Positions 499 to 32,497 of a stretch of 40,915 bases of DNA are shown piece by piece. The DNA comes from an uncultured Candidatus Saccharibacteria bacterium (lineage in GTDB: Bacteria; Patescibacteriota; Minisyncoccia; GWC2-36-17; CAYHJU01). The translations under genes were made by a program, and so were the position numbers. Numbering within the stretch: position 1 is the stretch's first letter; every line of letters starts with the position of its first letter. The stretch spans positions 1 to 40,915 of the forward strand of contig CAYHJU010000003.1 of the NCBI GenBank assembly GCA_964357175.1, read 5' to 3'. The notes beneath the pieces were generated by a model. It was given only the letters and a program-made list of their open reading frames with translations. It searched no databases and was not told the DNA's origin.

Positions 499-551
499 AT
501 TTCAATGTGCTTTAATTAGACGCATTGTATCACATAAAATAGGTCTGTCAA
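499..551 (-). promoter_or_regulatory. Sigma70 promoter (TTGACA-16-TGnTACAAT) followed by a boxA-like GCACATTGAAAT
   Basis: -35 at 546-551, -10 at 524-529 with extended TG, boxA-like at 499-510, all on the minus strand. Confidence 0.65.
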
Positions 552-674
552 CCTATTTTATGCAGAAAAATAATCTGCGTCTCACATTTGATTTTATTAA
601 TAAAAAGCGCGACTGTTGTTTTGAAAAACCATCCACAGACCTGCCATGGTCCCAGTCCCCTTTTTCTTTTTCAA

Positions 675-936
675 GCAGAGAAATAGCTCGCATCTCCCAT
701 TTGCGCAGTGAAGTTAAAACATGTAAACAATTTTCTAATAATTTTATAAAGAAAAGTCTCTTCGACTGAGCGAGCAGGGTCTAGTATTAAAATCCACCAA
801 TTTGGTGGATTTTAATACTAGGAGCGAGGGAAGAAGCGAAGCGATATTTCCACGCTGGGGAAATTGAGCGTCTTTTCGAATAAAGTTATTAGAAAATAAA
901 CACACAAGCATCTGAGAGGCGCAAATTGTTTTCTGC
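675..936. mobile_element. Nested palindromic MITE-like composite: a B-type shell with an A-type element inside
   Basis: Outer imperfect arms 675-691 and 919-936. Inner arms 731-756 and 871-896. Perfect 20-bp palindrome arms 781-800 and 802-821. Motifs 698-713 and 905-918 are exact reverse complements of 19253-19268 and 19100-19113. Confidence 0.6.
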
Positions 937-937
937 C

Positions 938-2755
938 TTATTCTTTTCTTTTTTCTCTTTTTCTCTGCAACGCGCTCAGAATCTTTTTGCGAATCCTTAA
1001 GCTTTTAGGAGTCACTTCCAAAAGCTCGTCGGGACCCACATATTCAAGCGCTAAATCCAAAGTTAATTCGCGCGGCGGAGTCAAAGATATCGCATCATCT
1101 GATCCGGACGCGCGCACATTGGTCAATTTTTTTGTTTTACAAATATTCAATTCCAGATCTGAATCATAAGCATTTTGTCCCACGACCATCCCCTCATAAA
1201 CCTCAATTCCGGAACCGATAAAAAGAACGCCGCGCTGTTGGGCGTTATTTAGTCCATAGGAATTACTTAGGCCCGGCTCACTGACTATTAAGGAGCCGTG
1301 TTTTTTACCCAAAAACGATTGCTCTTTAACTGGCCCATATGAATCAAAGACGTGGTGAATTATCACCATGCCCTTGGTCTTGGTCAAAAGGATGCTCTTG
1401 AGCCCCAGGATGCCTCTGGTGGGTATTACATATTCAAGCGTTACTACTTTCGATTCCCCTGGTATCATGCTTTGCAAAATACCTTCACGCGATCCAATCT
1501 CTTCAATAACCGCCCCTTGAAAATCCTGCGGCACTTCAATAGTCAAATATTCATATGGCTCGCATGTGGCTCCATTAATTTCTTTTAGAATAACTTCCGG
1601 CTGTGAAATTTGCATTTCAAATCCTTCACGGCGCATCGTTTCAATTAAAATTGCCAGCTGAAGCTCTCCTCTGCCAGAAACCAAAAAGGTGTCCGTGTTC
1701 TCTGTGGCCTGCACGCGCAAAGAAACATTGATTTCTATTTCTTTAAATAATCTTTCGCGAATATTACGTGATGTTACCAAGCTTCCCTCTCTGCCAGAAA
1801 ATGGACTAGTATTTACGCCAAAGGTCATTTTTACTGTCGGCTCATCAACCAAAAGTGGCGGCAAGGGAACCAAATCTCTGATGTCTGACAAAGTTTCACC
1901 TATAGAAACTTCCAAAAATCCTGAAATCGCCACAATGTCTCCGGCTCTGGCGCTCTCAATTTCTTTGCGAAGCAGGCCCTGATAAGCCAAAAGCGCAGTA
2001 ACTTTTCCGTTTGTTTTACTGCCATCAATTTTAAGTTCCACTAGTTGGTCACTTTTTTTAACTTCACCTGACTGAATTTTGCCTATCGCCATTTTGCCCT
2101 TGTAATTATCATAGCCCAAATCAACTACTAACATTTTAAATATCTCGCCCTCATTTATCGTGGGCGGAGGAATATGTTTTAAAATTGTTTCAAAAAGAGG
2201 TATCAGATCTTTACCGTTACCATCACTTTCAAGTGAAGCTGTACCATTTACTGCTGAGGCATATACTATATGAAAATCTAATTGTTCCGGGCTTGCGCCA
2301 AGCTCAACAAACAAATCAAAAGTTTTGTCCACCACTTCATTAATTCGGGCGTCTTTTCGGTCAATTTTATTTATTACTACTATCGCTTTTAAGTTTTTTT
2401 CCAGCGCCTTTTTTAAAACAAAACGAGTTTGAGGCATTGGCCCTTCTTTGGCATCAACCAAAAGCAAAACTCCATCAACCATATTTAAAGTTCTTTCAAC
2501 TTCTCCGCCAAAATCAGCATGTCCCGGGGTATCTACTATATTTATTTTTGTATCTTTGTAATAAATGCTCGCGTTTTTTGCTTTAATAGTGATGCCTCTT
2601 TCTTTTTCCAAATCCATAGAATCCATGATGCGCTCACCCATTTCCTCAATATTTCTCATCGCGCTGGTTTGGCGAAGCATGGCGTCCACCAAAGTGGTTT
2701 TGCCATGATCAACGTGAGCTATGATAGCTATATTTCTTATGTCGTTTCTTTGCAT
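938..2755 (-). CDS. typA: Translational GTPase TypA/BipA
   Basis: [44 protein letters not shown] and C-terminal [12 protein letters not shown]. Start moved to ATG 2755 (MQRNDIRN). Confidence 0.97.
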
Positions 2756-2820
2756 ATGTTTCAATCTCAAAAATAAAATCTCAAATCTCAAGGCCTTTAG
2801 AATAAAATCGAAAGGCTTTT

Positions 2821-2924
2821 TGTCTGTAGTCGGGAGACAGGTAGCAAAAGACCTCGAATGCTTTCGCCACGAGGTCTTCGGCCGACTTAGATCAAAGGGG
2901 ATCTTGCGATCCCGCTCATCTAAG
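2821..2924 (-). ncRNA. Candidate structured leader RNA upstream of typA
   Basis: Stem GGGATC-GCAA-GATCCC inside CTTAGAT/ATCTAAG, and stem AAGACCTCG...GC-GAAA-GC...CGAGGTCTT enclosed by GTCGG/CCGAC. Both loops are GNRA only on the transcribed strand. Confidence 0.45.
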
Positions 2925-2927
2925 GAC

Positions 2928-2955
2928 AGTATAGCAGATTATAAGTTCTTGTCAA
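2928..2955 (-). promoter_or_regulatory. typA promoter GGGG-TTGACA-16-TGnTATACT
   Basis: -35 at 2950-2955 and -10 at 2928-2933 on the minus strand. Confidence 0.75.
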
Positions 2956-3013
2956 CCCCTCACGGTAATGTGTATACTCATATTGCACTTTTAAGATAAT
3001 TTGATTCCGTCAA

Positions 3014-3048
3014 TAAAACCGCCCTGAGCTTGTTGAGAGGTGGTTTTA
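3014..3048. terminator. Possible hairpin terminator downstream of secY
   Basis: TAAAACCGCCCT...AGAGGTGGTTTTA imperfect inverted repeat; no clear U tract. Confidence 0.35.
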
Positions 3049-3071
3049 AGATTTTTCAAATAATTTATAAA

Positions 3072-3206
3072 CCCCCACACCTAATAAGCGCAAAATTCTT
3101 GACAAAGTTAAGCTTGAAAGAATTAACTTGTGGAATTATTAATAAAACGTGTTTATTAAATTGGTAACTGAATTTTAAAACTTTGCGCGCTTATTAGGTG
3201 TGGGGG
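3072..3206. mobile_element. 135-bp MITE with 20-bp perfect TIRs and a 4-bp TAAA target duplication
   Basis: CCCCCACACCTAATAAGCGC at 3072-3091 and its reverse complement at 3187-3206. TAAA at 3068-3071 and 3207-3210. No ORF. Confidence 0.8.
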
Positions 3207-3217
3207 TAAAATCCAAA

Positions 3218-4489
3218 CTAGAATCCTTCGTATTCTCTCATTGTGAGCTGGGAATCAATTTGTTGCATGCTATCCAACAAAACTGCCACTACGATTAAAA
3301 TGGCGGTGCCGCCGATTGTAAGAGTTTTAAAATTAGTCGCATATTGCACCACTAAAGGAATGACAGCCACCGTTCCCAAAAATACCGCTCCCCAAAAAGT
3401 GATGCGTCTTATAATATGGGAAAGATAATCCATGGTGGACGCGCCTGGGCGAATGCCCGGAATAAATCCGCCTTGCTTTTGCATGTTCTCGGCAATGGCT
3501 TTGGGATCAAACACTATGGCCGTATAAAAATAAGTAAACGCCACCACCAGGACAAAGTAAAGCATACCGTAGACTAACTGATTCTGAAAAAACACTTGCA
3601 TGGACCTGGCAAAATTTGCCAACCAAGGTATTGGGGTCGCTGATAAAATTCCCGCTAAAATATTGGGAAACAATAAAAGCGAGAGCGCAAAAATAATAGG
3701 TATCATTCCCGCCTGATTAACACGAATAGGTAGATAAGTAGAAGATCCGCCATATACACGGTTGCCTCTGATTCTTTTCGCGTAAGCCACCGGAACGTTT
3801 CTTTGAGCCTCTGTGATAAACACCACCCCACCCACCACGATGACCGTAATGGCCAAAAATGCCACGTAAGAGGGAATTTGACTGGGATCATAGGTAGTAA
3901 TCAATTGTTTTAAGTCCTGAGGCAAGCCCGCAACGATACCAGCAAATATCAAAAGAGAAATACCATTGCCTATGCTTTTTTCAGAGATCAATTCTCCAAG
4001 CCACATTAAAAGAATTGAGCCGGCAGTAGCCACTATTATATTAAAGGCGATGCTAAGAGGTGTCAGCGCGCCAAGAAGATTCTGGCGCTGAAGGATAACG
4101 ATCAAGCTGTATGCCTGAAGTAGCGCCAGAGGAACAGTCAAAATGCGAGTGTATTGGTTAAATTTGCGACGTCCCGCCTCTCCTCCTTCCTGATACATTT
4201 CTTTTAGAGAAGGAAAGATCATGGTTAAAAGCTGTAAAATGATAGATGAGGTTACATATGGACCAACTCCGAGCATCATCAAAGACATCTGGCTCAAAGC
4301 TCCTCCGGAAAAAAGGTTGATCATTCCGAAAATCTGACTGCCTTCAAAATACGCCTTGATCTGATCGACGTCTATGCCGGGAATCGGGATGGACGCGAAC
4401 AATCTAAAGACAACCAAAATGCCCACAACATAAAGTATTTTATTGCGGATCTCTTTTACTTTAAAAATTTGATATATTTTTTCCCACAT
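3218..4489 (-). CDS. secY: Preprotein translocase SecY
   Basis: VFRLFASIPIPG, LGVGPYVTSSII, SIGNGISLLIFAG, QAGMIPIIFA, FIPGIRPG. Start ATG 4489. Confidence 0.98.
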   Translation of the reverse strand: MWEKIYQIFKVKEIRNKILYVVGILVVFRLFASIPIPGIDVDQIKAYFEGSQIFGMINLFSGGALSQMSLMMLGVGPYVTSSIILQLLTMIFPSLKEMYQEGGEAGRRKFNQYTRILTVPLALLQAYSLIVILQRQNLLGALTPLSIAFNIIVATAGSILLMWLGELISEKSIGNGISLLIFAGIVAGLPQDLKQLITTYDPSQIPSYVAFLAITVIVVGGVVFITEAQRNVPVAYAKRIRGNRVYGGSSTYLPIRVNQAGMIPIIFALSLLLFPNILAGILSATPIPWLANFARSMQVFFQNQLVYGMLYFVLVVAFTYFYTAIVFDPKAIAENMQKQGGFIPGIRPGASTMDYLSHIIRRITFWGAVFLGTVAVIPLVVQYATNFKTLTIGGTAILIVVAVLLDSMQQIDSQLTMREYEGF

Positions 4490-4494
4490 GATCA

Positions 4495-4932: not shown

Positions 4933-4937
4933 AAAAT

Positions 4938-5811: not shown

Positions 5812-6357
5812 TTAGGAGGACGCTGTAGCGGCTTTCTTTCCGGCTTTACGTCTGATTTTTTCTCCTAAATAATGTATGCCCTTGCCTTTGTATGGTTCGG
5901 GTTTTTTGACTGCCCGAATATTTGCCGCCACCTGCCCAACCAATGTCTTGTCAAAACCCGATACTGTTATAGTATTTTTTTCTACGGAAATTTTAATGCC
6001 TTCCGGAGCTTCTAGCTCAACAGGATGAGAAAATCCGACAGTTAAAGTCAACTTATTTCCGGACATGGCGGCGCGATAACCCACCCCTTCTATTTCCAAT
6101 TTTCTTTCAAATCCTTCGCTGACACCTTTTACCATATTGGCCACCAGCGCGCGTGTTAGCCCCCACAAAGCCGGAGTAGATTTAGTTTTTTTCAACGGAG
6201 TTATTATTAATTGATCGCCCTCAAGATTAATATCCACTTCAGGCAAAAAACTATACGAAAGCTGTCCCAACTTACCTTTTACGATAATATTGGGTTTCTC
6301 CAATGTGATTTGCACATCTTTGGGTACGCTTATTGGTTTTTTACCTATACGGGACAT
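5812..6357 (-). CDS. rplF: 50S ribosomal protein L6
   Basis: MSRIGKKPI, GVGYRA, KPEPYKGKGI. Confidence 0.98.
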   Translation of the reverse strand: MSRIGKKPISVPKDVQITLEKPNIIVKGKLGQLSYSFLPEVDINLEGDQLIITPLKKTKSTPALWGLTRALVANMVKGVSEGFERKLEIEGVGYRAAMSGNKLTLTVGFSHPVELEAPEGIKISVEKNTITVSGFDKTLVGQVAANIRAVKKPEPYKGKGIHYLGEKIRRKAGKKAATASS

Positions 6358-6487
6358 AATATAATAAAATTTTTAATTTCTAATTTCTAAACAATTTTCA
6401 ATGATTTAATTTTCAAACTTTTTAATTAGAAATTGAGTAATTGGAAATTGTTTGAAAATTGAGAATTGATAATTGAAAATTAATAAT
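6358..6487. repeat. AT-rich 7-nt-periodic hairpin element, copy 1
   Basis: AATTTCT and GAAAATT units forming an imperfect inverted repeat; about 8 differences from copy 2 over about 133 bp. Confidence 0.85.
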
Positions 6488-6877
6488 CTACCAGACTTCG
6501 CAGATAACCTCTCCGCCAACCTTTAATTTACGCGCCTCACTGTCGGACAAAACACCTTTGGGCGTAGAAACAATAGCCATCCCATAACCCTGCTTTACTG
6601 GTTTTAATTCTGAAATTTTACAGTAAACTCTGCGGCTAGGCTTGCTGACCCTTTTAATACTGGACATCACCGGCTTGCCCTCTGAATCATACTTCAAGAC
6701 AATCTCAAGGCTTTTGTTCAATTTTTTTCCGCTTTTTTCATATTGACCGATAAATCCTTCTCTTTGCAAAATTTTCACCAAAAGCAAATTCATAGCAGAA
6801 TAAGGCACGGCCACTTTGGTGTGCCTCGCCATTTGAGCGTTCCTTATGATGGTTAACATGTTAGCTATAGAGTCCAT
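6488..6877 (-). CDS. rpsH: 30S ribosomal protein S8
   Basis: MDSIANMLTIIRNA, SKPSRRVY, IVSTPKGV, GGEVICEVW. Confidence 0.98.
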   Translation of the reverse strand: MDSIANMLTIIRNAQMARHTKVAVPYSAMNLLLVKILQREGFIGQYEKSGKKLNKSLEIVLKYDSEGKPVMSSIKRVSKPSRRVYCKISELKPVKQGYGMAIVSTPKGVLSDSEARKLKVGGEVICEVW

Positions 6878-7007
6878 GATATAATAAAATTTCTAATTTT
6901 TAATTTCTAAACAATTTTTAATGATTTAATTTCCAAACTTTTTAATTAGAAATTGGATAATTGGAAATTGTTTGAAAATTGAGAATTGATAATTGAAAAT
7001 TAATAAC
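6878..7007. repeat. AT-rich 7-nt-periodic hairpin element, copy 2
   Basis: Near-identical direct repeat of 6358-6487. Confidence 0.85.
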
Positions 7008-13599: not shown

Positions 13600-13977
13600 T
13601 TAGAGCATTTTGAGTTCTATTTCCACGCCAGCTGGCAAACTTAAATTCGTAAGAGCGTCTGTTGTTTTGGGATTAATATTAACTATATCTATCAATCTTT
13701 TATGGACTCTCAATTCATATTGTTCTCTTGAATCTTTGTGCACAAATGTAGATCGATTAACGGTATATTTTCTGAATTCGGTAGGCAAAGGTATAGGACC
13801 TATCACATCTGAACCATTGCGCAGTGCCGCATCCACTATTTGCTTGGCACTATTGTCAATAATTCTATTGTCATAGGAACGGATCTTTATCCGCACCTTG
13901 GTCTTAAATCCTTTACCGTCTATTTCTGGAGAAGCTTCCGGTTTTTTAGACACTTTTTTAACTGATTTTGGAGACAT
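13600..13977 (-). CDS. rpsJ: 30S ribosomal protein S10 (NusE) with N-terminal extension
   Basis: [40 protein letters not shown]. Confidence 0.97.
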
Positions 13978-14049: not shown

Positions 14050-15243
14050 CTACACGATTATCTTGGAGACCGCCCCGGCCCCGACTGTCTTGCCGCCTTC
14101 GCGAATGGCAAATCTCTGTTTTTCCTCGAGCGCCACAGAAGCGAGCAGTTTAACCTTTATGGAGATAGTATCACCTGGCATAACCATTTCAACGCCTTCC
14201 GGTAAAATAACTTCACCAGTCACATCAGTGGTGCGGATATAAAACTGTGGTTTGTATCCTTTGAAAAATGGAGTGTGTCGTCCACCTTCTTCTTTGGTCA
14301 AGACGTAAATTTCACCTTCAAATTCAGTATGGGGATTAACACTTCCGGGTTTCACGATAACCTGTCCGCGCTCCACGTCTTCTTTCTTGAGACCGCGTAA
14401 AAGTATTCCGGCATTATCTCCAGCCACACCTTCATCCAAAGATTTGTTGAACATTTCAATTCCGGTAACAACAGTTTTTTGTGTTGGACGAAGTCCGACT
14501 ATTTCAACTTCATCGTTTACTTTGATTTTTCCTCTCTCAACACGTCCAGTAACTACTGTGCCACGTCCTTCAATTGAGAAGACGTCTTCAATGGCCAATA
14601 AAAACGGCTTGTCGATTTCACGAGTTGGTTCAGGAACATACGAATCCAAAGCCGCCACTAAATCCAAAATTGGCTTAACGGCCGGATCATCCAATGACTT
14701 GGCCTCCAATGCTTTAAGAGCAGAGCCGCGGATAATAGGAGTTTCGTTTCCTGGAAAATTATATTTGGACAAAAGTTCACGAATTTCTACTTCCACCAAG
14801 TCAACAAGCTCCGGATCATCCACCATATCAACTTTGTTTAAAAATACTACTATAGAAGGCACGCCTACCTGACGAGCAAGCAAGATGTGCTCTCTGGTTT
14901 GGGGCATTGGACCGTCAGCCGCAGAAACAACCAAAACCGCGCCGTCCATCTGAGCGGCACCTGTGATCATGTTCTTTATATAGTCGGCGTGTCCTGGAGC
15001 ATCAATGTGAGCGTAGTGCCTATTTTCGGATTCATATTCAGAGTGATGCAAGGCAATAGTAATACCACGAGCTTTTTCCTCAGGAGCATTGTCGATTTGA
15101 TCAACTCCTTCTTCCTTTTTAGCCAAACCCTTCATGAAAAGCACGTGGGTAATAGCCGCGGTCAAGGTAGTTTTACCATGATCAACGTGACCAATAGTAC
15201 CGACGTTCACATGAGGTTTTGTGCGTTCAAATTTTTCTGCCAT
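14050..15243 (-). CDS. tuf: Elongation factor Tu
   Basis: [41 protein letters not shown]. Confidence 0.99.
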
Positions 15244-15418: not shown

Positions 15419-15688
15419 CTATATGGGCAGGTCAGACAAGCTAAACTTAATATCTTTTTCTTCCGAAACATCATAGGCGATCTCTTCTTCCAATTCGTCC
15501 AACATCAAATTTTGAACCGCATCATCTGACGCATCAACCTCAACGCTTTTGCTCAATTCACTTTCAGCTGGAATCAGTTTTTCAAAAAACGAATACTCCA
15601 TGATGACGTACGCCGGCTTTTCATTCTCCAATATCACTGCTGATGACGCTCCGTTTTTTAGTAACTGCTTTATCTTATTAAGCAACAT
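15419..15688 (-). CDS. Hypothetical protein with Phd/YefM-like N-terminus and acidic tail
   Basis: AVILENEKPAYVIM resembles the Phd VI.xNGKP.AV signature; no toxin gene is adjacent. Confidence 0.6.
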   Translation of the reverse strand: MLLNKIKQLLKNGASSAVILENEKPAYVIMEYSFFEKLIPAESELSKSVEVDASDDAVQNLMLDELEEEIAYDVSEEKDIKFSLSDLPI

Positions 15689-15819
15689 AAAATAATTTCT
15701 AATTTTTAATTTCTAATTTCTAAACAATTTTTAATGATTTAATTTTAAAACTTTTTAATTAGAAATTGAGTAATTGGAAATTAATTGAAAATTGAGAATT
15801 GAAAATTGAAAATTGAAAA
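15689..15819. repeat. AT-rich 7-nt-periodic hairpin element, copy 3
   Basis: Same core as copies 1 and 2 (TTTCTAAACAATTTTTAATGATTTAATTTT...AGAAATTGAGTAATTGGAAATT) with extra GAAAATT units. Confidence 0.85.
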
Positions 15820-19340: not shown

Positions 19341-19367
19341 AAAAACCCCAGCCATTTTGACTGGGGC
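19341..19367 (-). terminator. Intrinsic terminator
   Basis: GCCCCAG-TCAAAATGG-CTGGGG then TTTTTATTTTTT on the minus strand. Confidence 0.7.
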
Positions 19368-19405: not shown

Positions 19406-19615
19406 TTAAGATATAAGACAAAAGAATGCGACCACACCTGCCATAACCCAACTAAGCGCAAATCCAACAACAAGGGATATGATTTTTTGCTTCCAAGTAA
19501 TATCAAAAAAATATCCCCAAGCGATTGCCGCAAAAATCGGTAGCCATGCGATATACCACACATGCAACCAAACTAGCGGAATGATTAAAAGCCAAAGCCT
19601 AAGAAAAAATTCCAT
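19406..19615 (-). CDS. Small hydrophobic hypothetical membrane protein
   Basis: 69 aa with two hydrophobic stretches; SD AAGGAGG 5 nt upstream; own terminator. Confidence 0.75.
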   Translation of the reverse strand: MEFFLRLWLLIIPLVWLHVWYIAWLPIFAAIAWGYFFDITWKQKIISLVVGFALSWVMAGVVAFFCLIS

Positions 19616-19620: not shown

Positions 19621-19681
19621 CCTCCTTTTTAAAAGAGCAGATTCTTACTTATAAAGCATACGACACTTTTTTAAAAGTCAA
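19621..19681 (-). promoter_or_regulatory. Weak promoter (TTGACT-15-TATGCT) with boxA-like TGCTCTTTTAAA fused to SD AAGGAGG
   Basis: boxA-like at 19628-19639, SD at 19621-19627; the -35/-10 spacing is suboptimal. Confidence 0.5.
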
Positions 19682-19693: not shown

Positions 19694-19723
19694 AAAAAAA
19701 TCCCCCACGTTTTCGTGGGGGAT
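19694..19723 (-). terminator. Intrinsic terminator
   Basis: ATCCCCCACG-AAAA-CGTGGGGGAT followed by a T run on the minus strand. Confidence 0.85.
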
Positions 19724-19740: not shown

Positions 19741-20382
19741 TCAGTTAGACACAAACACCCACTCGTAGTGAGCGCCCCAGAAAAAGTCAGGGCCACCAAG
19801 ACCTTCGACAAGCTGAGACGTTTTCTCGCTCAAAAAATTACTATTATAGCGCTGCAAACAAAACACGACAAAACGCTTGTTGTCCAACTTAATTATAGGC
19901 TTCATGGCAATAAAGAGAGTTTCGTCTTCTGGCTGGTCTTTGTACTGCAAGCGAAGCTGAGGACCAGCCTCGGCAGGACAGAGGCCCAAGTCGAGTTTTC
20001 TAGCCCTAGCATAAATATTCCTTGTGGTAGCGCCTTTTTCGAAGCCGAGATCATTAACAGAAAGTCGTACCAAATTCAGAGTGACGGGAGTTGAAGCAAG
20101 TTTAATTCTATCTAGAATCTCATTGCAACTGATACGCTGACCGCTTTTCTCAATGTCTTGACGAAGAGACTTGACACAAGAGTGAGTGCCGATCTGAATG
20201 GTACGGAAAACGGGAAAGTTGTGAGCGTCAACCAAACAAAAAGCTCTTTCAAGATTCTCTTGGATGGTTTCAGGATCATCAATCAAGCGTTGCATTTCTT
20301 CGCTGGGAATTTTTGGAAAATTTTGAATAAGCGTAGCGATAAACTTTGCTGTCTGCCTATCGTACTTCCCGTCTTTTGGCAT
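19741..20382 (-). CDS. CPR-type hypothetical protein, possibly CLec-like or DGR-target-like
   Basis: TIQIGTH, LVRLSVNDLGF, LGLCPAEAGPQLRLQYKDQP, IAMKPI, W...YEWVF. SD AAAGGAGG. The family assignment is my recollection of a Parcubacteria-expanded family and is unverified. Confidence 0.75.
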   Translation of the reverse strand: MPKDGKYDRQTAKFIATLIQNFPKIPSEEMQRLIDDPETIQENLERAFCLVDAHNFPVFRTIQIGTHSCVKSLRQDIEKSGQRISCNEILDRIKLASTPVTLNLVRLSVNDLGFEKGATTRNIYARARKLDLGLCPAEAGPQLRLQYKDQPEDETLFIAMKPIIKLDNKRFVVFCLQRYNSNFLSEKTSQLVEGLGGPDFFWGAHYEWVFVSN

Positions 20383-20514
20383 GGCGTTTTTTCCTCCTTT
20401 TGAAGGTGTTCGCCATTTCGCCTTGCTAGAGGACCACCACCACGGCAGCCATAGCCAAAAAACATCAAAAAAATATTTAATATCTTTTGGCTACGGCCAC
20501 CCAAAATATAAATT

Positions 20515-20574
20515 ATTTAAAAGAACTTTACGTTACATTAATCGCAAACTACCACGCAAACCTTATTCTGTCAA
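20515..20574 (-). promoter_or_regulatory. Promoter TTGACA-17-TAGTTT with boxA-like GTTCTTTTAAAT
   Basis: -35 at 20569-20574, -10 at 20546-20551, boxA-like at 20515-20526. Confidence 0.7.
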
Positions 20575-20582
20575 ATAAAAAT

Positions 20583-20745
20583 AAAGCGCAGCTATTGTTT
20601 TAAAAAACCATCCGCAGGAAAATTTGCTCGGTTTATAAAACGAGTACTTTTTAAAAGGTGCTCGTTTTATAAAAATTTTCCGAGGACGTGACGAAATCGC
20701 TCGCAGGAAGCGATTGAGTGTGTTTTGAGAAACAATAGCTGTGCG
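20583..20745. mobile_element. C-type nested-palindrome element
   Basis: Arms GCGCAGCTATTGTTT / AAACAATAGCTGTGC (1 mismatch). Inner TTTATAAAACGAGTAC / GTGCTCGTTTTATAAA. Hairpin AATCGCT...AGCGATT. Left end matches 604-638 at 30/35. Confidence 0.7.
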
Positions 20746-21807: not shown

Positions 21808-23099
21808 GATTTAATCCTCTCTCTCTTAATAACTTTAAATTTGCCCAAAAGCCGAGACGCCACCTTGGGCCATTTGATAAGCGGCTCGTTGATAAGCAGG
21901 GCAATCGTTTGTTCCTGCGAATACCCGCCATCTTGCAAGGCCTTGTAAACATTCAGCCCTTCCCAAACGATTTGCTTATATTCATCTTCAAAAATTTGTT
22001 TGTCCGCTTGTTCAAAAAAGCTCTGAATTTTTTGTTTCAACGCTTCATTTTCACCAAAATGCAGATCTTTATAAATTACTTCACCCAAAGTATATTTGCC
22101 CTGAAAAAATATTTCTCTAAGCTGTTTCCTAGTATTGTCAAAATAATTATAGGAACGCTCCTTTTCAACGTTGGTAATCGTTTCAAATATGCCCCTCAAA
22201 GACGCGTCTACTTCTGTTTTCTCAATGGCGTCGTAGCGAGATTTAAGATAGGCCAAAATTTCATTCTTGGCAGACGCCTCTCCCTCTTCACGAAATGATC
22301 TAAAAAATCTCGACAGAGCGCTTTTAATTTTTTCATCATTATTATTCATCGCGGCCTCCATAAAATCGGCGAAAAATCCCTCCCTTTGGGGAATTTCCTT
22401 AAACAGTCTTCTTATGGCGTGCTGTTCCTCGTGCACAAAAATTCTGTCATGATCTTTGTCAGAATTTTTTCCCACCGCCTTTTGCGCGATGATGGTTCCT
22501 GCAAGCTCTTGAATTAATGACGTCTTAATGCTTACGCCGCTAGAATCACTTGCCGAATCTATGTCTTTCGCAGTTAAGACGCGTCCATTTAAAAATGCTT
22601 GGCTGTAGATCAAGGTATAATCTTCCAAATGATAACATTTTACATATAAAGTTATAGGCCCTTCGACTATTTCTACTTTGCCCTGCGGTTTTACGCCAAA
22701 CATCACTTCAAAAAGTTCCGCATCATCGGGATATTCTTTTCTGTATTTACTAACGGCTTGATGTTTTTGTTCATATTCTTGTAAAATTGCTTCGGCAATT
22801 TTTTTCTGCTGGGGAGTAAATCCGTATTTGGCGCCCCACTCATCTAAATTTTTATTTAAATCTTCCAGCGGTATGTCGGGGTTTTCTCTTATTTGAGAAA
22901 CAAAATCTTCTTGCATTTTTGCAAAGCCTTCTTTTTGATAAACATATTTTTCTTTCCACCTATCCAGCGCGTCTTTTCTTTCTTTGGAGGACAACGCCTT
23001 GACGTCTTTCAGCTCAAGCTCCGGAAAAAACATCTCTCCTTCTGAAATTGGAGATTTTTCTTCTTCAGCCTTTTCTATTTTTGGTTTTTCTTGATCCAT
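21804..23099 (-). CDS. Hypothetical protein with HExxH motif, possibly zincin-like
   Basis: IFVHEEQHAI with downstream AKNEILAY; ATGA overlap with the epimerase. Confidence 0.7.
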   Translation of the reverse strand: MDQEKPKIEKAEEEKSPISEGEMFFPELELKDVKALSSKERKDALDRWKEKYVYQKEGFAKMQEDFVSQIRENPDIPLEDLNKNLDEWGAKYGFTPQQKKIAEAILQEYEQKHQAVSKYRKEYPDDAELFEVMFGVKPQGKVEIVEGPITLYVKCYHLEDYTLIYSQAFLNGRVLTAKDIDSASDSSGVSIKTSLIQELAGTIIAQKAVGKNSDKDHDRIFVHEEQHAIRRLFKEIPQREGFFADFMEAAMNNNDEKIKSALSRFFRSFREEGEASAKNEILAYLKSRYDAIEKTEVDASLRGIFETITNVEKERSYNYFDNTRKQLREIFFQGKYTLGEVIYKDLHFGENEALKQKIQSFFEQADKQIFEDEYKQIVWEGLNVYKALQDGGYSQEQTIALLINEPLIKWPKVASRLLGKFKVIKRERIKS

Positions 23100-26864: not shown

Positions 26865-26893
26865 TTGACAGAACATAAATTTGGGTGTATAAT
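26865..26893 (+). promoter_or_regulatory. Consensus sigma70 promoter TTGACA-17-TATAAT
   Basis: Exact consensus, divergent from aspS. Confidence 0.85.
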
Positions 26894-26985
26894 GTGGGCA
26901 CGATACTATAGAAGCGACTACGGCGCTTTTCCAACCTCATAGCCCTTTCAAAACTAAACCCCCCTCCCCATAGAAAGGAAACGCC

Positions 26986-27708
26986 ATGCCTACGACACAG
27001 GAACAGGCCCGAGAAATTCTGGGCAAGGACTTTTCCTCGATCGGGGATGCCTTGCGCCTCTTTCCGGCACTGGACTACTCGAAGGAACATGAAATGAAAA
27101 TGGCCACAGTTCCCTTTTCGACAGATTTTCTGATGTCCCGAAAGGGAAGCCTGATCATCTGCCCCGGATTCAACAGCCTTGATGACGATCTGTTTTCTTT
27201 ACGGACACTTGATGGCATGTTTTTTGACAGGAGCATGCCGCGCATCTCCCATCACAACAAGAGCGTCCCTCACGACAGGAGCGCCATTCACAACAAGCAT
27301 CTCAAGATGACGGAGAGTCGTCCTGATCCTCCTCTCTGGTCGTGGTCCGGAGGTGAAGATTTTTTCTCTGCCACCGCCGAACTCCGGTGGTACGCCATCA
27401 GCAAGCAACCCAAGGCCCCCTATCAGCACGTTGACATCTTCAGGCAAGACGCCATCATGGAGCCGGGCCGCAGGAGGGAGAACGCGTTTGTATACACATG
27501 GGCCGCGTGGCTTCACTTCCTGCGAACAGGAGAGCTTCTGTGGCCCAACATTTCAGTCTGGACTTCAGACACCCTGACCGACGGAAGAAGGGTGGCCGTA
27601 GGCGGATGGGAAGACTCCTCCAAACCCCTCTGGGTCCTCGAGCCGAGCGACCCCACCATGAACAAGTTTCCAAAAACTGTTCCATCGTACGAACCAAACA
27701 GATTTTAG
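26986..27708 (+). CDS. Hypothetical protein, GC-rich; homolog of 27895..28608
   Basis: 240 aa; SD GAAAGGA; AREILG.DF, VPFS.D.L, HFLRTGELLW, WTSD....GRRVAVG. Sampled 60-nt lines are 50-60% GC. Confidence 0.85.
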   Translation: MPTTQEQAREILGKDFSSIGDALRLFPALDYSKEHEMKMATVPFSTDFLMSRKGSLIICPGFNSLDDDLFSLRTLDGMFFDRSMPRISHHNKSVPHDRSAIHNKHLKMTESRPDPPLWSWSGGEDFFSATAELRWYAISKQPKAPYQHVDIFRQDAIMEPGRRRENAFVYTWAAWLHFLRTGELLWPNISVWTSDTLTDGRRVAVGGWEDSSKPLWVLEPSDPTMNKFPKTVPSYEPNRF

Positions 27709-27725
27709 CCCCATCAAGTGGGCTG

Positions 27726-27754
27726 AGCTCTACCGCGCAAGGTAGAGCTTTTTC
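27726..27754 (+). terminator. Intrinsic terminator
   Basis: AGCTCTACC-GCGCAA-GGTAGAGCT-TTTTC. Confidence 0.8.
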
Positions 27755-27799: not shown

Positions 27800-27821
27800 A
27801 AAAAACAAGCGTCGAAAAATA

Positions 27822-27889
27822 TTGACAAATTACACGCTCAGATTTATATTATGAGCAGGTTCCTTGAAAACAAATTGGCTAAAAGGAGG
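27822..27889 (+). promoter_or_regulatory. Promoter TTGACA-17-TATATT, boxA-like GTTCCTTGAAAA, SD AAAGGAGG
   Basis: -35 at 27822-27827, -10 at 27845-27850, boxA-like at 27859-27870. Confidence 0.8.
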
Positions 27890-27894
27890 ACGCT

Positions 27895-28608
27895 GTGAGA
27901 AAAAACTATGTCACTTGGCCCGAAGCAAGAGAGATTTTGGGGGAAGAAAACTTTCACGATTTAGTTGGCCTACAAGACATGCACCCCGATTTGCGTCTTA
28001 TGCCCGAAGAATGGAATCAGTTCCACTTGATTCCTTATAGCGCCGATGTTTTAGACGAGCACAGAAAAGAAGTTATTTTGTATCCAGAGATTAAAAGTGA
28101 CGTCAAGAGAAATTTTATAACAACGAAATGGTTTGAAAATAATTTTCCAAATATTTTTTCTTTTAATCAAAAGGGTGTGTTCGACCAATACCCTCATACC
28201 TTGGAAGTGATTAACGCAAAATTAAATTCTCCAATGTTACAAAATAGATGGCGCTTGATTTTTAAAACTTTGGGAGATGATTCTTGCACGCACAAAGACA
28301 AAAAGACGTCTTTTGAGATAAGCGGGATGGGAATGCCCAATTATATATTCGCCGCACTGCTTCACTACACAAAAAGTCGTGAGAAGTTGTGGATTGACGA
28401 CGGTCGACCAATTTTTTGTTCGGAATTACAACTTTTAGTAATCGTGAAAAGCACCTCTTTCCGGTTTGTGTTTTCTGCCTGGACAACTAGTGGCTCGGAT
28501 TTTAAATTAACACTTGCTTCATCCACCTCATCAATTCTGAATAAATGTTCGCGCCCCGCGCATATGCAAATAGTTATGCCAACAAAAAAACCGGCATGGT
28601 GGCAATAG
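27895..28608 (+). CDS. Hypothetical protein; homolog of 26986..27708
   Basis: GTG start with SD; EAREILGEENF, IPYSADVL, LLHYTKSREKLW. Confidence 0.8.
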   Translation: MRKNYVTWPEAREILGEENFHDLVGLQDMHPDLRLMPEEWNQFHLIPYSADVLDEHRKEVILYPEIKSDVKRNFITTKWFENNFPNIFSFNQKGVFDQYPHTLEVINAKLNSPMLQNRWRLIFKTLGDDSCTHKDKKTSFEISGMGMPNYIFAALLHYTKSREKLWIDDGRPIFCSELQLLVIVKSTSFRFVFSAWTTSGSDFKLTLASSTSSILNKCSRPAHMQIVMPTKKPAWWQ

Positions 28609-28624
28609 TAAAAACAAGATTGAG

Positions 28625-28655
28625 TAAAACTCCAGCAAAAGCTGGAGTTTTTATT
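28625..28655. terminator. Bidirectional terminator
   Basis: AAAACTCCAGC-AAAA-GCTGGAGTTTT between convergent genes. Confidence 0.8.
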
Positions 28656-28683
28656 TGTTTATAAGCCTCGCTTTTTCTAAAAA

Positions 28684-29301
28684 TTATTTAACAATATAAA
28701 CCTTATCCATCTTAATCGGATTTATCGGTCTGTCATTTGCGCCTGTTTTATCATTCCCTATTTTATCCACCACATCCTGTCCAGAAATGACTTTCCCAAA
28801 AATCGTATAGTTGTGAGGAAGCGGGGTGTCCGCAAGCATTATGAAAAACTGCGAACCGTTAGTATTGGAGCCGGCATTTGCCATCGCTACCACACCCTTT
28901 TTATATCCTTCTTGATATGATGGGGCGCTTGGATTTAATTCATCCGCAAATTGATATCCTGGCCCGCCCATGCCTGTGCCTGTCGGATCGCCGCCCTGAA
29001 TCATAAATCCTTTAATCACTCTGTGAAAAATTATTCCGTTATAAAATCCCTTATCAGCTAGTTTTATAAAATTCTCAACGGTTTTGGGAGCGTCTTTTTC
29101 ATACAAAACAAATTCGATATTTCCGTAGCTAGTTTCTATCACCGCTTTTTTGCTGGTAGCGATAGAAGGTGACGCGCTTTCAGATGGCGCTGGAGAATTT
29201 TCTGAAACATTTTTTAGATTAGATGGTTGCATAAATATATAAATTAAAAAAATTATAAAAGCCAAGACTAACGCACCGATTGTAATATTTTTTATTGTCA
29301 T
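28684..29301 (-). CDS. Cyclophilin-type peptidyl-prolyl isomerase with N-terminal membrane anchor
   Basis: APKTVENF, FHRVIKGFMIQGGDPTGTGMGGPGY, AMANAGSNTNGSQFFI, YTIFGKV. Confidence 0.95.
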   Translation of the reverse strand: MTIKNITIGALVLAFIIFLIYIFMQPSNLKNVSENSPAPSESASPSIATSKKAVIETSYGNIEFVLYEKDAPKTVENFIKLADKGFYNGIIFHRVIKGFMIQGGDPTGTGMGGPGYQFADELNPSAPSYQEGYKKGVVAMANAGSNTNGSQFFIMLADTPLPHNYTIFGKVISGQDVVDKIGNDKTGANDRPINPIKMDKVYIVK

Positions 29302-29400
29302 ATTTAGTAAATTAGAAAATAGTAAATGGAAGAAAATTTAAAATTAAGCATTGGAAATTGCGTAATTGAAAATTGATTGAAAATTAGAAATTGAAAATTA
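29302..29400. repeat. Degenerate 7-nt-periodic element (half copy)
   Basis: TTGGAAATTG...TAATTGAAAATTGATTGAAAATTAGAAATTGAAAATT units like the right arm of copies 1-3. Confidence 0.6.
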
Positions 29401-29470
29401 TTTTACGTTGGATTCTAGCTACTAAATTCTATTATATATTATATCAATTAAATTATTTTATTCAAATCCA

Positions 29471-29496
29471 ATAAAAAACCTCCGACAAGCGGAGGT
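29471..29496 (-). terminator. Intrinsic terminator
   Basis: AACCTCCG-CTTGT-CGGAGGTT-TTTT on the minus strand. Confidence 0.7.
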
Positions 29497-29509
29497 TAAT
29501 AATCCTTAT

Positions 29510-29737
29510 TTATGGTTTCTGTATTACTTCAAATAATTTCATATTAAAGAGCGCAGGCAACACATTTCCGGCCTCGTCTTTAAGCTGTAAAAAAACATCC
29601 TCGCGCCAACCTATCACGCCCACTACATCAAATTCACATTTAAACATCCATTTTGGAAAATTTTTCTTTTGTTTTTCCACGAAAGAATTTTTGGCCATCT
29701 TAACCCTGCCCTTAGACCATTTTTTAGATTCAGACAT
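29510..29737 (-). CDS. Small hypothetical protein
   Basis: Start moved to ATG 29737 (MSESKKWSKG), with SD GAGG just after the upstream stop. Confidence 0.6.
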   Translation of the reverse strand: MSESKKWSKGRVKMAKNSFVEKQKKNFPKWMFKCEFDVVGVIGWREDVFLQLKDEAGNVLPALFNMKLFEVIQKP

Positions 29738-29745
29738 TGCGCCTC

Positions 29746-30072
29746 TTACGCCCCATCTACTTTCTTTGAAAGTCGATAAAGACACGTCCAGTAAGTCCAG
29801 TATTCTTGGGTTGCGTTTTCAGCCAATTTAAAAGTAACAAACCTTGCGGCAAATTCAGCTGTTCTTCGTGGTTTAGAAGTGAGAATTAAAATTTGTCCAA
29901 TGGGGGCGACAGATCTTTTCGTCAGTTGATCCATCATATCCCCTAATTGATTTCCAGGACCCTTTTCAAAATAAATCATTTCATTGGGAAGCAGGTCTCC
30001 CTCTGAAGGCGGCTTCTTGGAAGCGAGAACCTTAACTCTTGCCCCAGGAATTGCGTCTGCTCTTTTTAACAC
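29746..30072 (-). CDS. Hypothetical protein
   Basis: 108 aa, GTG start, SD GAGGAGGT, own promoter and boxA-like motif. Confidence 0.75.
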   Translation of the reverse strand: MLKRADAIPGARVKVLASKKPPSEGDLLPNEMIYFEKGPGNQLGDMMDQLTKRSVAPIGQILILTSKPRRTAEFAARFVTFKLAENATQEYWTYWTCLYRLSKKVDGA

Positions 30073-30076
30073 AAGA

Positions 30077-30149
30077 CACCTCCTCTTTCTTTTTTGTAAT
30101 TTTTCAAAGACCCGACTATAAGAATATTCAAAATAGTTTATGATGTCAA
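30077..30149 (-). promoter_or_regulatory. Promoter TTGACA-17-TATTCT, boxA-like GGTCTTTGAAAA, SD GAGGAGGT
   Basis: -35 at 30144-30149, -10 at 30121-30126, boxA-like at 30101-30112. Confidence 0.8.
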
Positions 30150-30158
30150 ATTTGTAAA

Positions 30159-30186
30159 TTGCAAAAAGTCACATTTTATTTATAAT
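30159..30186 (+). promoter_or_regulatory. alaS promoter TTGCAA-16-TATAAT, probably giving a leaderless mRNA
   Basis: The -10 ends 7 nt before the ATG at 30194. Confidence 0.6.
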
Positions 30187-30193
30187 ACAAGAT

Positions 30194-31978
30194 ATGACAT
30201 CAAATGAGATCCGAGAAAAATTTCTAAAATTTTTTGAACAAAGGGAACATGCTCGCGCTCCCTCTTCTTCACTTTTGCCAGACGATCCTTCGGTGCTTTT
30301 AACTACTGCCGGAATGCAACAATTCAAGCCGTATTTCACAGGACAAGCCGACCCAATAAAGGATTTTGGCAAAAAAAGCACGACATCTTCTCAAAAATGC
30401 TTTCGCACTTCGGATATTGACGAGGTGGGCGATGAGCGCCACCTGACATTTTTTGAAATGCTGGGAAATTTTTCTTTTGGCGGTTCGCCAGCTGGCGAAT
30501 TAAAAAAAGAAGCAATAAAATACGCCAATGATTTTATAAAAGAACTCGGGCTTGAAATTGATTATGTGACAATTTTCGGTGGCGATCCTGATGTCCCCGA
30601 AGATAAAGACTCAGAAAAATATTGGCTGGAGCTTGGAATTCCGCAAGAAAAAATCAAAAAAATGGGACGCGCGGATAATTTTTGGGGACCTACGGGAAAT
30701 GAAGGCCCTTGCGGTCCGACAACTGAAATTTATGTAAAACCGTCCAAGGAGACCGAAGCCATAGAAATATGGAACGTTGTTTTTAATGAATTTTACTGCC
30801 ATCCAGACAAACATTTAGAAAAACTTTCCACCCCCGGAATTGATACAGGAATGGGACTTGAACGACTGGCCGCGGTCGTCCAAAAAGTTCCGACTGTTTT
30901 TGATACGGATTTATTTGAGCCAATATTAGAAGTTATAAAATCAAAAGAGATTGGTACCCCGGACAGAGATGTCAATGTTATAAAAGCGGAAAGAATTGTA
31001 GCTGATCATATGAAAAGCGCCGTGTTTTTGCTGACTGATGGCATTAGACCATCAAATGTTTTGCAAGGATATATTTTGCGCAGAATAATTCGTCGCAGTA
31101 TCAGGTACGCCAAGATGTTGGGACTTCCGGCTGATTTTTATGCAGACGTGATTGATGAGATTATAAAAATATATGACCACAACTACCCGGATATTTTAAA
31201 ACAAAAAGATGCAATTTTAGATGAACTGCAAAAAGAAATTCAGAAATTTGAAAAAGCAGTTGAACACGGAATTAAAAAATTTGAAGAGTTTTATAATCAG
31301 AAAATTTTTGAAGATGAGGCTTCTGGTGCCAAGTGCGCCTTTGAGCTTTATGAGACATACGGCTTCCCTTTTGAGCTAACCGAAGAGCTTGTGAAAGAGC
31401 GTGGAGGAAAATTGAATAAAAATCTTTTTGAAGACGAGCTTTCACGCCACCAAGAAATTTCCCGCGCGGGAGTTGAGAAAAAATTTGGTGGACACGGACT
31501 AAAATTGGACACGGGCGAACTTAAAGCGGCAAGTGAAGAAGAATTAAAAAAAGTCACGAGACTCCACAGCGCCACCCATTTGCTTCACGCTGGACTGCGC
31601 AAAGTTTTGGGCGACACGATTCAGCAACGCGGATCGGACATTACCGCCGAAAGATTGAGGTTTGATTTTTTGTTTGATAGAAAATTAACAGATGAAGAAA
31701 AGGCGGCCGTGGAAGAATATGTAAATGACGCTGTAACTGCCAATGTTGAAATGATTCATAAAGACGCGCCATACGAGGAGGCAATCGCTTCGGGATTTTT
31801 GGCATTTTTCAGAGGCAAATATCCCGCCATTGTTTCTACTTATGAACTTCCGGGCTGGAGCAAAGAAGTTTGCGGAGGCCCGCATGTTTCACGAAGTGGT
31901 GAAGTGGGAAAGTTTAGAATTATCAAAGATGAAGCGTCCAGCGCTGGAGTAAGAAGAATCAGAGCGACGGTAGAGTAA
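30194..31978 (+). CDS. alaS: Alanine-tRNA ligase, short form lacking C-Ala
   Basis: LLTTAGMQQFKP, SQKCFR, HLTFFEMLGNFSFG, IDTGMGLER, ADHMKS, editing HSATHLLH and CGGPH. Confidence 0.96.
   Translation: MTSNEIREKFLKFFEQREHARAPSSSLLPDDPSVLLTTAGMQQFKPYFTGQADPIKDFGKKSTTSSQKCFRTSDIDEVGDERHLTFFEMLGNFSFGGSPAGELKKEAIKYANDFIKELGLEIDYVTIFGGDPDVPEDKDSEKYWLELGIPQEKIKKMGRADNFWGPTGNEGPCGPTTEIYVKPSKETEAIEIWNVVFNEFYCHPDKHLEKLSTPGIDTGMGLERLAAVVQKVPTVFDTDLFEPILEVIKSKEIGTPDRDVNVIKAERIVADHMKSAVFLLTDGIRPSNVLQGYILRRIIRRSIRYAKMLGLPADFYADVIDEIIKIYDHNYPDILKQKDAILDELQKEIQKFEKAVEHGIKKFEEFYNQKIFEDEASGAKCAFELYETYGFPFELTEELVKERGGKLNKNLFEDELSRHQEISRAGVEKKFGGHGLKLDTGELKAASEEELKKVTRLHSATHLLHAGLRKVLGDTIQQRGSDITAERLRFDFLFDRKLTDEEKAAVEEYVNDAVTANVEMIHKDAPYEEAIASGFLAFFRGKYPAIVSTYELPGWSKEVCGGPHVSRSGEVGKFRIIKDEASSAGVRRIRATVE
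30484..30499. repeat. 16-nt palindrome inside alaS
   Basis: TTCGCCAGCTGGCGAA; same CGCCAGCTGGCG core as the intergenic palindrome at 37763-37784. Confidence 0.75.
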
Positions 31979-32006
31979 TGTTTGTTTTTAGATAAGATAA
32001 AAAATG

Positions 32007-32031
32007 AAAAAGACGGCAAGAGGCCGTCTTT
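32007..32031. terminator. Bidirectional terminator
   Basis: AAAAGACGGC-AAGAG-GCCGTCTTTT between convergent genes. Confidence 0.8.
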
Positions 32032-32039
32032 TATTTTAT

Positions 32040-32423
32040 TTATAGAAGAGATTTTATTAAAATTGTTTCCTCTTGAGATTCTTGGTGTGACAATTGATTT
32101 TCAACAAAATCAATAAGAAACTTTTTTTCTTCCTTGGTTAAATCCAGATTGATTATTTTATCGTCCCGAGAAACCACAGACCCTCTACACGTCACTTCTC
32201 CCCATGGAGACCTCAGAAACATTCTTATCTTTCTCAAAAAACGCAATCCGTGCGTTTCTCGAGAAATCACGACAGATACATTTCTCGATTCATACAGAAC
32301 TGCAACGAATTGAACACACCGTAGCCAACCTTCTTTCTGCCATTTCAATTTACCATTTTTAATATCTTCAATAATTTTTGACACGAGCTGTCTTTTGGAC
32401 GACCCAGGCTCAAACACGCTCAT
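32040..32423 (-). CDS. Hypothetical protein
   Basis: Start moved to ATG 32423 (MSVFEPG), which has SD AAAGGAGG 5 nt upstream. Confidence 0.7.
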   Translation of the reverse strand: MSVFEPGSSKRQLVSKIIEDIKNGKLKWQKEGWLRCVQFVAVLYESRNVSVVISRETHGLRFLRKIRMFLRSPWGEVTCRGSVVSRDDKIINLDLTKEEKKFLIDFVENQLSHQESQEETILIKSLL

Positions 32424-32428
32424 CCAAG

Positions 32429-32497
32429 CCTCCTTTGTGCCCATATTTCAAAGAACCGCTTGATGTCAACAGTAAGCTGTTTATGATAAAAAGTCAA
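32429..32497 (-). promoter_or_regulatory. Promoter TTGACT-17-TACTGT, boxA-like GTTCTTTGAAAT, SD AAAGGAGG
   Basis: -35 at 32492-32497, -10 at 32469-32474, boxA-like at 32445-32456, SD at 32429-32436. Confidence 0.75.

Follow-up and report, generated by a model that had tools for sequence, protein, structure and literature searches.

Together, boxA and the Nus factors are textbook components of rRNA and phage antitermination; the nut sites of phage lambda consist of boxA and boxB and are read by the N protein and Nus factors, and in E. coli SuhB is required both for the full Nus complex and for the repression of suhB. The boxA of the E. coli suhB gene represses translation, and boxA-like sites before other genes number 0-7 per gamma-proteobacterial genome, few targets per species being expected (PMC5725501); the mRNA targets known so far are no more than a handful. 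One further, non-Nus gene, encoding a ParE-like toxin of Citrobacter koseri, was shown to be Nus-factor-regulated (Baniulyte et al. 2017, PMC5725501), hence accessory genes are already known as boxA targets. We analysed a 40,915-nt contig of an uncultured Candidatus Saccharibacteria bacterium (CAYHJU010000003.1; the window, contig C3 of a 758-kb, 30-contig genome with 39% GC), in which a boxA-like element recurs in the leaders of accessory genes that start with a strong Shine-Dalgarno (SD) sequence. We tentatively propose, with a probability of roughly 45%, that the boxA of this lineage has been placed in the leaders of ~50 of the ~74 strongly SD-led genes, where NusB-S10 would gate translation beside the SD.

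Genes were called with a simple caller of our own (codon log-odds, greedy picking of open reading frames (ORFs), iterative scoring of start codon and ribosome-binding site). An SD-like motif 4-11 nt 5' of the start is absent in 630 of 734 called genes (~86%), and this SD-less class includes all ribosomal-protein genes of the window as well as tuf, fusA, secY, typA, aspS and alaS. About 75 of the 734 carry GGAGG, AGGAG or AGGAGG, the strong-SD set analysed comprising 74 genes. The SD-led genes have a higher GC content at third codon positions (GC3; median 0.41-0.43 versus 0.37 in the SD-less genes, p = 2e-8). The SD-less leaders are A-rich from -12 to -2 and have T at -1 in 69% of cases, which gives them a Kozak-like look (window examples 14050-15243, 13600-13977 and 30194-31978). 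Three relatives of the same order, available as partial genomes (400 kb), also have ~86% SD-less genes and the same upstream pattern.

About half of the Parcubacteria are reported to have lost the canonical CCTCCT motif (PMC9297842). In the present genome the 16S 3' end (contig C22:~125-150) reads GGATCATCTCCTTTCT (tail ...GAUCAUCUCCUUUCU), the first C of CCUCC being changed to U and the anti-SD core CUCC retained; the SDs are nonetheless mainly GGAGG (57) rather than GGAGA (14). Relatives within the order (L007, L009, L011, L012 and L017) have the canonical tail CACCTCCTT, and the 16S tail of a relative within the class, G019, has no anti-SD whatever. There is a parallel with Bacteroidetes, in which the few genes that do have an SD, rpsU for example, are under special regulation. 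In both cases a small minority of genes with strong SDs has the appearance of a separately controlled class; the C-to-U change in CCUCC is a difference. In Bacteroidetes, too, most genes are SD-less and A-rich before the start (PMC7797042), and there it is the ribosome that sequesters its anti-SD, with no boxA involved, whereas the SD-led class described here is marked by boxA.

The sequence-only reading of the window had listed seven related 12-mers, all of which we found at the given places and strands. A degenerate form of the pattern, GNNCNTTNAAAW, occurs 21 times in the window as opposed to 12.7 +/- 3.5 times in shuffled sequences, and because this enrichment is marginal, barely above chance, a whole-genome test was needed. 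Genome-wide, the exact string GTTCTTTGAAAA is present in 7 copies versus ~0.24 predicted by our own estimate from base composition, copies that differ from it at no more than one position cluster strongly in the intergenic 13% of the genome, and many copies are directly followed by GGAGG and then a start codon. The search pattern published for boxA, GYTCTTTAANA, has 18 exact matches in the genome.

An expectation-maximisation search for motifs, seeded with unrelated AT-rich strings and run over positions -80 to -15 of the 74 SD-led genes, arrives at G[CT]TCTTT[GTA]AAAA with a log-likelihood of 134; three control sets of SD-less genes, matched in size, give 78 at most. After refinement, the matrix has 14 columns and reads A-G-N-W-C-Y-T-T-N-A-A-A-A-N, with G2, C5, T7, T8, A10 and A12 near-invariant. 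Matches of at least 10 bits are found on the sense strand of 50 of the 74 SD-led leaders and on the antisense strand of 1 (a sense to antisense ratio of 50 to 1), versus 15 (sense) and 6 (antisense) of 617 SD-less leaders (Fisher test for 50/74 against 15/617, p = 4e-44). Two-fold cross-validation gives the motif in 46-68% of held-out SD-led and 1-3% of SD-less leaders. SD-led leaders contain 7.9 matches of at least 12 bits per kb, SD-less leaders 0.25, coding sequence 0.06 and the antisense of leaders 0.03; the density in SD-led leaders is thus ~30 times that of SD-less leaders and more than 100 times that of coding or antisense sequence. Even the consensus of the sequence-only reading, with at most two mismatches, occurs sense-upstream of 25 of 74 SD-led but only 17 of 622 SD-less genes (Fisher p = 5e-16).

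The motif tracks the strong SD, neither orphan status nor a particular promoter type. The proposed contrast with core genes holds: the motif precedes ~2% of these versus 58-68% of the SD-led genes, also under cross-validation, and the leaders of typA, tuf, rpsL, aspS and alaS have no sense-strand match above 8.2 bits. We regard it as highly probable that the motif is a functional element acting at the RNA level.

Several other accounts of the motif were considered and rejected. Chance or AT-richness is ruled out by the shuffles, the antisense and SD-less controls and a reverse-read pattern control. A DNA operator or alternative promoter element is ruled out by the strictly sense-strand occurrence, the variable distance to the -10 box (6-46 nt) and the tie to the SD; a partial TTC-N3-GAA dyad is found in a minority of copies only, since 41% have G at position 9. 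A built-in anti-SD hairpin, with CYUU pairing to AAGG, would, judging from the sequences, consist of at most 4-6 weak pairs and leaves the invariant A-run and the SD-distant copies unexplained. An enhancer complementary to 16S rRNA was dismissed on duplex energies, which against the available parts of 16S fall within ~1.5 standard deviations of those of shuffled motifs. A multi-copy boxA decoy small RNA was also dropped, the genome having no such cluster; the sole cluster is the long leader at window positions 20397-20610. Known RNA families and tRNAs were looked for in the window and none was found.

The identification with boxA was made from 16S leaders. The matrix, trained solely on the mRNA leaders of this genome, was run on leaders of 16S taken from 12 genomes within the order or class, and it reaches at least 10 bits on the sense strand in 10 of them, 60-240 nt upstream of 16S (examples are GGTTCTTTGAAAAT, AGTACCTTGAAAAC, GGTTCCTTGAAAAC and AGAACCTTAAAAAC, several lying directly 3' of a hairpin). 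Given a background of 2.6e-4 per position across the genome, at least 10 matches in 12 would arise by chance with a probability of ~1.6e-8. Because of this match, the motif is probably the rrn (rRNA operon) boxA of the lineage, for which reading by NusB-S10 is predicted. The 16S leader of the genome itself (contig C12) has a perfect TTGACA..TATAAT promoter, a hairpin and the string AGTACTTTGATAAT 66 nt 5' of 16S. NusB (C11:15958-16341), NusG (C26:1252-1560) and NusA (C9:26492-26992) are all encoded; S10 (NusE), the presumed boxA-binding partner of NusB, is the product of rpsJ in the window (13600..13977, minus strand; PF00338, E = 5.7e-33), a gene with neither an SD nor a boxA of its own. The resemblance to boxA claimed from the window alone is therefore borne out by the fit to the published pattern and by the rrn-leader copies, and nusB and a boxA in the rrn leader, which it had asked for, are both there. 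As for the 16S gene (contig C12:23414-24592), it matches the model at 9-546 and again at 663-723, with ~180 nt unmatched in between and the contig end following, which hints at either an insertion in the gene or a break in the assembly; the assembly contains no 23S rRNA gene, and the sequence downstream of the 16S 3' end has no evident boxA.

Compared with the rrn boxA of E. coli, which serves an antitermination complex of NusB-NusE/S10, NusA, NusG, S4 and SuhB and has the core GCUCUUUAACAA, the element described here has the same core sequence (G-N-W-C-Y-U-U-N-A-A-A-A) and lies on the same strand and at a predicted transcribed position, and nusB, rpsJ, nusA and nusG are encoded. It differs in preceding ~50 protein-coding genes, directly against the SD, and in the lack of SuhB and Rho. 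No Rho RNA-binding domain was found in the genome, none of 31 genomes of the order or class reaches the TIGR00767 cut-off (weak rho-model matches of at most 54 bits in relatives are probably other RecA-type ATPases), and the genome has no member of the SuhB/inositol-monophosphatase family. Since the lineage has no Rho, classical Rho antitermination is excluded as the purpose of the mRNA boxA. Of the two roles that had been suggested for the window sites, protection of foreign transcripts is accordingly unlikely, Rho and SuhB both being absent, and damping of translation is the better fit.

All motif copies of the scanned leaders lie within 80 nt of the start codon, and in 22 of 53 copies (~40%) the last A of the motif is separated from the SD core by -1 to +1 nt. 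CUCCUUU in the 16S tail is the pairing partner of the extended SD, AAAGGAGG, to which the A-run of the motif belongs. A sigma-70-type promoter (at least 9 of 12 positions) is found upstream in 32 of the 53 cases, and in 25 of these 32 the motif starts 6-18 nt 3' of the -10 box, at or just past the predicted transcript start. About 12 leaders have a stable hairpin that ends 2-6 nt before the motif. The near-confinement of the motif to SD-led genes, the frequent abutment to the SD and the position of the A-run within the extended SD favour competition with the 30S subunit. We propose that boxA, beginning ~0-12 nt from the predicted transcript start, would act as a single-stranded RNA signal with the consensus AG-N-W-C-Y-U-U-N-A-A-A-A; that NusB-S10, which NusG and NusA might keep bound to RNA polymerase, would occupy the leader and compete with the 30S subunit for the SD; and that translation of the entire SD-led class would be set by the free pool of NusB/S10, i.e. 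by the state of ribosome synthesis. That gating of SD-dependent translation is the main effect of the motif is, on our analysis, a possibility somewhat short of even odds. The wider picture of two regimes, with SD-free core genes on one side and nearly the whole SD-led class (~7% of genes: accessory genes, orphans, proteases) gated by boxA and NusB-S10 on the other, is doubtful.

A number of points weigh against our proposal. In the remaining 31 of the 53 leaders the SD is 2-48 nt away from boxA, a distance at which simple steric occlusion is harder to see. The rrn copy of the genome itself, AGTACTTTGATAAT, scores 7.1 bits and is the weakest rrn-leader copy found, and SuhB, as said, is absent. 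The autoregulatory hallmark of the known mRNA boxA cases is missing: no Nus-factor gene has a boxA, there being no match of at least 7 bits near the starts of nusB, nusG, nusA or rpsJ. Part of the link between boxA and SD could be due to a common ancestry of portable promoter-leader modules; duplication is visible in some families of leaders. The gene and start calls, coming from a simple caller, are a further caveat.

The motif might be read by NusB-S10 with an effect on transcription instead, the polymerase being turned into a Nus-modified, rrn-type complex that is fast, pause-resistant and RNA-chaperoning. Such a complex would help the full synthesis of GC-richer, probably acquired genes and might uncouple these genes from the lead ribosome. 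The identity of the motif with the rrn-leader boxA, the full set of NusA, NusB, NusG and S10, the predicted location near the transcript 5' end and the ~12 leaders with a hairpin just 5' of boxA, which recall the boxB-boxA layout of the relatives' rrn leaders, are all in keeping with this. There is, however, no Rho to counteract, the units are short and monocistronic, each closed by a strong intrinsic terminator so that read-through would be harmful, and a purely transcriptional role leaves both the confinement to SD-led genes and the abutment to the SD unexplained; we therefore consider it unlikely. Alternatively, the reader might not be NusB-S10 but the 30S subunit or S1, acting at an enhancer or standby site, an RNase or another determinant of mRNA stability at the 5' end, or an RNA-binding regulator; the resemblance to boxA would then reflect shared U-tract/A-tract chemistry, or a different factor that also acts on the rrn leader. 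For this speak the tight tie to the SD and the start codon, the A-run, which lengthens the SD duplex with the 16S tail CUCCUUUCU, and the many predicted transcripts that have the motif at their very 5' end. The invariant G2, C5, U7 and U8 are nevertheless the boxA core and not those of a generic A/U-rich enhancer, the same motif is found in untranslated rrn leaders of 10 of 12 relatives, and its complementarity to the available parts of 16S is no better than that of shuffled versions, which makes a different reader quite improbable.

It may also be asked whether boxA and SD merely hitch-hike on portable cassettes or mobile promoter-leader modules that spread among Patescibacteria with horizontally acquired genes, the motif having little regulatory meaning in this host today. 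Most of the ~50 leaders are alike only in boxA and SD and differ in promoters and spacers, orthologues with a protein identity of 41-49% retain the motif between diverged flanks, and possible donor genomes in the phylum have only 0-5 abutting copies each. Such hitch-hiking is thus very unlikely, even though the higher GC3 of the SD-led genes (p = 2e-8), SDs of the GGAGG type that fit the canonical anti-SD better than the UCUCC tail of the host, identical promoter-leader modules before non-homologous genes and the clustering of ~10 such genes on contig C4 speak for it.

Regarding these modules, a near-identical unit (TCTTTACAAAAAACAAAAATAAAC-N-TATACT ... boxA-SD) occurs at C1:~85880-85957, C4:~21812-21890, C4:~22300-22370 and C23:~15104-15180, before genes as unrelated as those of PepF, a nucleoside deoxyribosyltransferase-like protein and a seven-transmembrane protein; it has the look of a promoter-leader unit that is mobile or has been duplicated. 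The ~10 clustered boxA/SD-led genes lie at C4:5500-27000, which may be a genomic island. Several of them have a common leader hairpin, ACAATCTCTTCTGC...GCAGAAGAGAT, right before boxA, and this hairpin begins like the rrn-leader hairpin of the relatives G007 and G004 (ACAATCTCAA...TTGAGATTGT). The nut sites of phage lambda are similar in that boxA stands beside a hairpin on accessory or foreign units and host Nus factors are used (a use that is predicted here). In lambda, however, the hairpin is downstream of boxA, whereas here it is upstream, as in rrn, and the units are single genes ending in terminators.

The combination of boxA and an abutting SD was also searched for in other genomes with the pattern GNWCYTTNAAAA-N0-1-GGAG. 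The present genome has 19 copies (1 in the reverse-read control), 18 other genomes of the order have 0-2 each, and 400 sampled Patescibacteria genomes have at most 5 each. In the three partial genomes of the order, boxA precedes 6 of 27 SD-led versus 1 of 336 SD-less genes, and the coupling of boxA to the SD is thus shared by other genomes. Orphan genes of the window have syntenic orthologues on metagenome contigs, beside aspS, cyclophilin and alaS; at 47-49% protein identity, boxA and SD are kept and the rest of the leader is divergent.

A Pfam family is matched by 11 of 25 unselected motif-bearing proteins; the other 14 are orphans, among them all five from the window. A further, selected batch gave more named families. 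Proteases are represented by PepF/M3, M16, a weak S55 match, FtsH, Lon, S41 and M50, signalling or stress-related proteins by PrkA and SpoVR, lipid and acyl metabolism by a patatin, an acyl-CoA dehydrogenase and an AMP-binding enzyme, nucleotide metabolism by adenylate kinase, dCMP deaminase and queuosine salvage, and RNA metabolism by a beta-CASP nuclease. The set is defined by the SD, and only about half of its members are orphans. "Accessory" is a fair label, "orphan" is half right, and the defining trait is the strong SD. About 24 SD-led genes are without the motif. One of them is the window gene 37094-37345, which has the SD AGGAGG and no transcribed boxA; its sole boxA-like string, AGAATTTTTAAAGG (9.2 bits), lies 5' of the -35 box (window 37024-37093).

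Most of the ~50 genes stand alone as cassettes in which promoter, boxA, SD, ORF and terminator follow one another, and so do the motif-bearing units of the window, whose terminators are of the intrinsic type. One of these units is on the plus strand, where a sigma-70-type promoter, TTGACA-17-TATATT (27822..27850; 11/12 match), is followed 8 nt past its -10 box by GGTTCCTTGAAAAC (27858..27871, 16.8 bits), which syntenic orthologues in L063 and L064 keep in place, and by the SD AAAGGAGG (27882..27889), 5 nt before a GTG start. The ORF (27895..28608, plus strand; terminator 28626-28651) encodes a 237-aa orphan of no Pfam family with homologues only in a few metagenome contigs, a paralogue of the product of 26986-27708. 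The paralogous unit on the same strand has a 12/12 promoter, TTGACA-17-TATAAT (26865..26893), and its boxA-like string AGCCCTTTCAAAAC (26941..26954, 14.2 bits) is 48 nt downstream of the -10 box, at a distance of 32 nt from the ATG; after it come a C-rich tract and then a weak SD, AAAGGAAA, and the ORF (26986..27708, terminator 27725-27750) encodes a 240-aa orphan, again of no Pfam family. The C-rich tract CCCCCCTCCCC (window 26955-26985, between boxA and the weak SD) is anti-SD-like and might pair with SD-like purines.

The other units are on the minus strand. A 10/12 promoter, TTGACA-17-TATTCT (30121..30149), precedes by 8 nt, counted from its -10 box, the copy GGGTCTTTGAAAAA (30100..30113, 15.1 bits), with the SD AGGAGG (30079..30084) before a GTG at 30072 and a 108-aa orphan ORF of no Pfam family (29746..30072); the orthologous leader in L064 has two boxA-like copies. 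The copy GGTTCTTTGAAATA (32444..32457, 12.3 bits) has a weak -10 box upstream and is followed by the SD AAAGGAGG (32429..32436), an ATG at 32423 and an ORF for a 127-aa orphan of no Pfam family (32040..32423, terminator 32008-32032). At 19626..19639 the A-run of TGCTCTTTTAAAAA (15.5 bits) overlaps the SD AAAGGAGG (19621-19628) of a 69-aa hydrophobic orphan ORF (19406..19615, terminator 19345-19367), so that the direct contact of motif and SD noticed at 19621-19639 is real. The gene 19741-20382, encoding a 213-aa orphan of no Pfam family (terminator 19700-19723), has a long leader with a promoter-proximal copy, AGTTCTTTTAAATA (20514..20527, 11.8 bits), and a second one, AACACCTTCAAAAG (20397..20410, 12.2 bits), which was missed in the first list and abuts the SD AAAGGAGG (20393-20400). 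A weak string with A at the Y position, AGCACATTGAAATA (498..511, 9.1 bits), is a doubtful member; it lies 13 nt after a promoter seen by eye, TTGACA-16-TACAAT, and a structured leader of ~140 nt separates it from its SD (355-361) and the ATG at 347.

The sequence-only reading had placed the motif 8-19 nt past the -10 box of six units, which is correct for the sites at 27859 and 30101 (8 nt each) and at 499 (13 nt), but 19627, 20515 and 32445 are preceded by poor -10 boxes. An SD is indeed close by at 19627, 27859, 30101 and 32445, but ~140 nt away at 499 and ~115 nt away at 20515. Its interpretation as a whole is supported: the motif exceeds its control frequencies, is rare before core genes, and nusB and an rrn-leader copy are present.

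Other recurrent leader elements were noted. A near-identical AT-rich leader of ~45 nt (aaattgtttagaaattagaaattaaaaatt...) precedes three SD-less genes, 5812-6357, 6488-6877 and 15419-15688 (window 6380-6487, 6900-7000 and 15689-15760, minus strand), and other core leaders have short tandem repeats, e.g. tagattctaactcctagattctagattct. A conserved element of ~90 nt is present twice in the genome (C11:~2100-2220 and C26:~1870-1990) and consists of a hairpin, TTAAATGGAG...CTCCAAT, then TTTCTTTGAAAA, then TTATTTAACAGGGTTGAC; one copy is located 5' of the small gene preceding nusG, and the TTATTTAACAGGGTTGAC part recurs at several core promoters.

The logic of our proposal is that shown for the boxA in the 5' untranslated region of suhB in E. 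coli and Salmonella, likewise an mRNA-leader boxA near the ribosome-binding site, with inhibition of translation (proposed here). It differs in extent, since ~50 genes, 7% of the genome and two thirds of the SD-led genes are concerned here, and in that no Nus gene has a boxA, no Rho-dependent termination step is involved and SuhB is lacking. While boxA in an mRNA leader is itself known, what is new is its scale in a minimal genome of a Rho-less and SuhB-less lineage; in the literature searched, no paper linking boxA or NusB with Patescibacteria was found.

The marking by boxA and SD suggests one common switch for a mostly accessory class of genes. If NusB-S10 truly reads these leaders, the Nus system would have a global, translation-linked regulatory role, a function outside antitermination at a scale undescribed in any organism. 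A pair of ribosome-biogenesis factors would then serve as a global post-transcriptional switch, by which the flexible gene pool would be tied to ribosome synthesis or newly acquired SD-type genes would be licensed. This could explain how SD-poor bacteria handle SD-type, probably acquired genes, and a class of co-regulated genes could then be recognised simply from sequence in uncultured organisms of the candidate phyla radiation.

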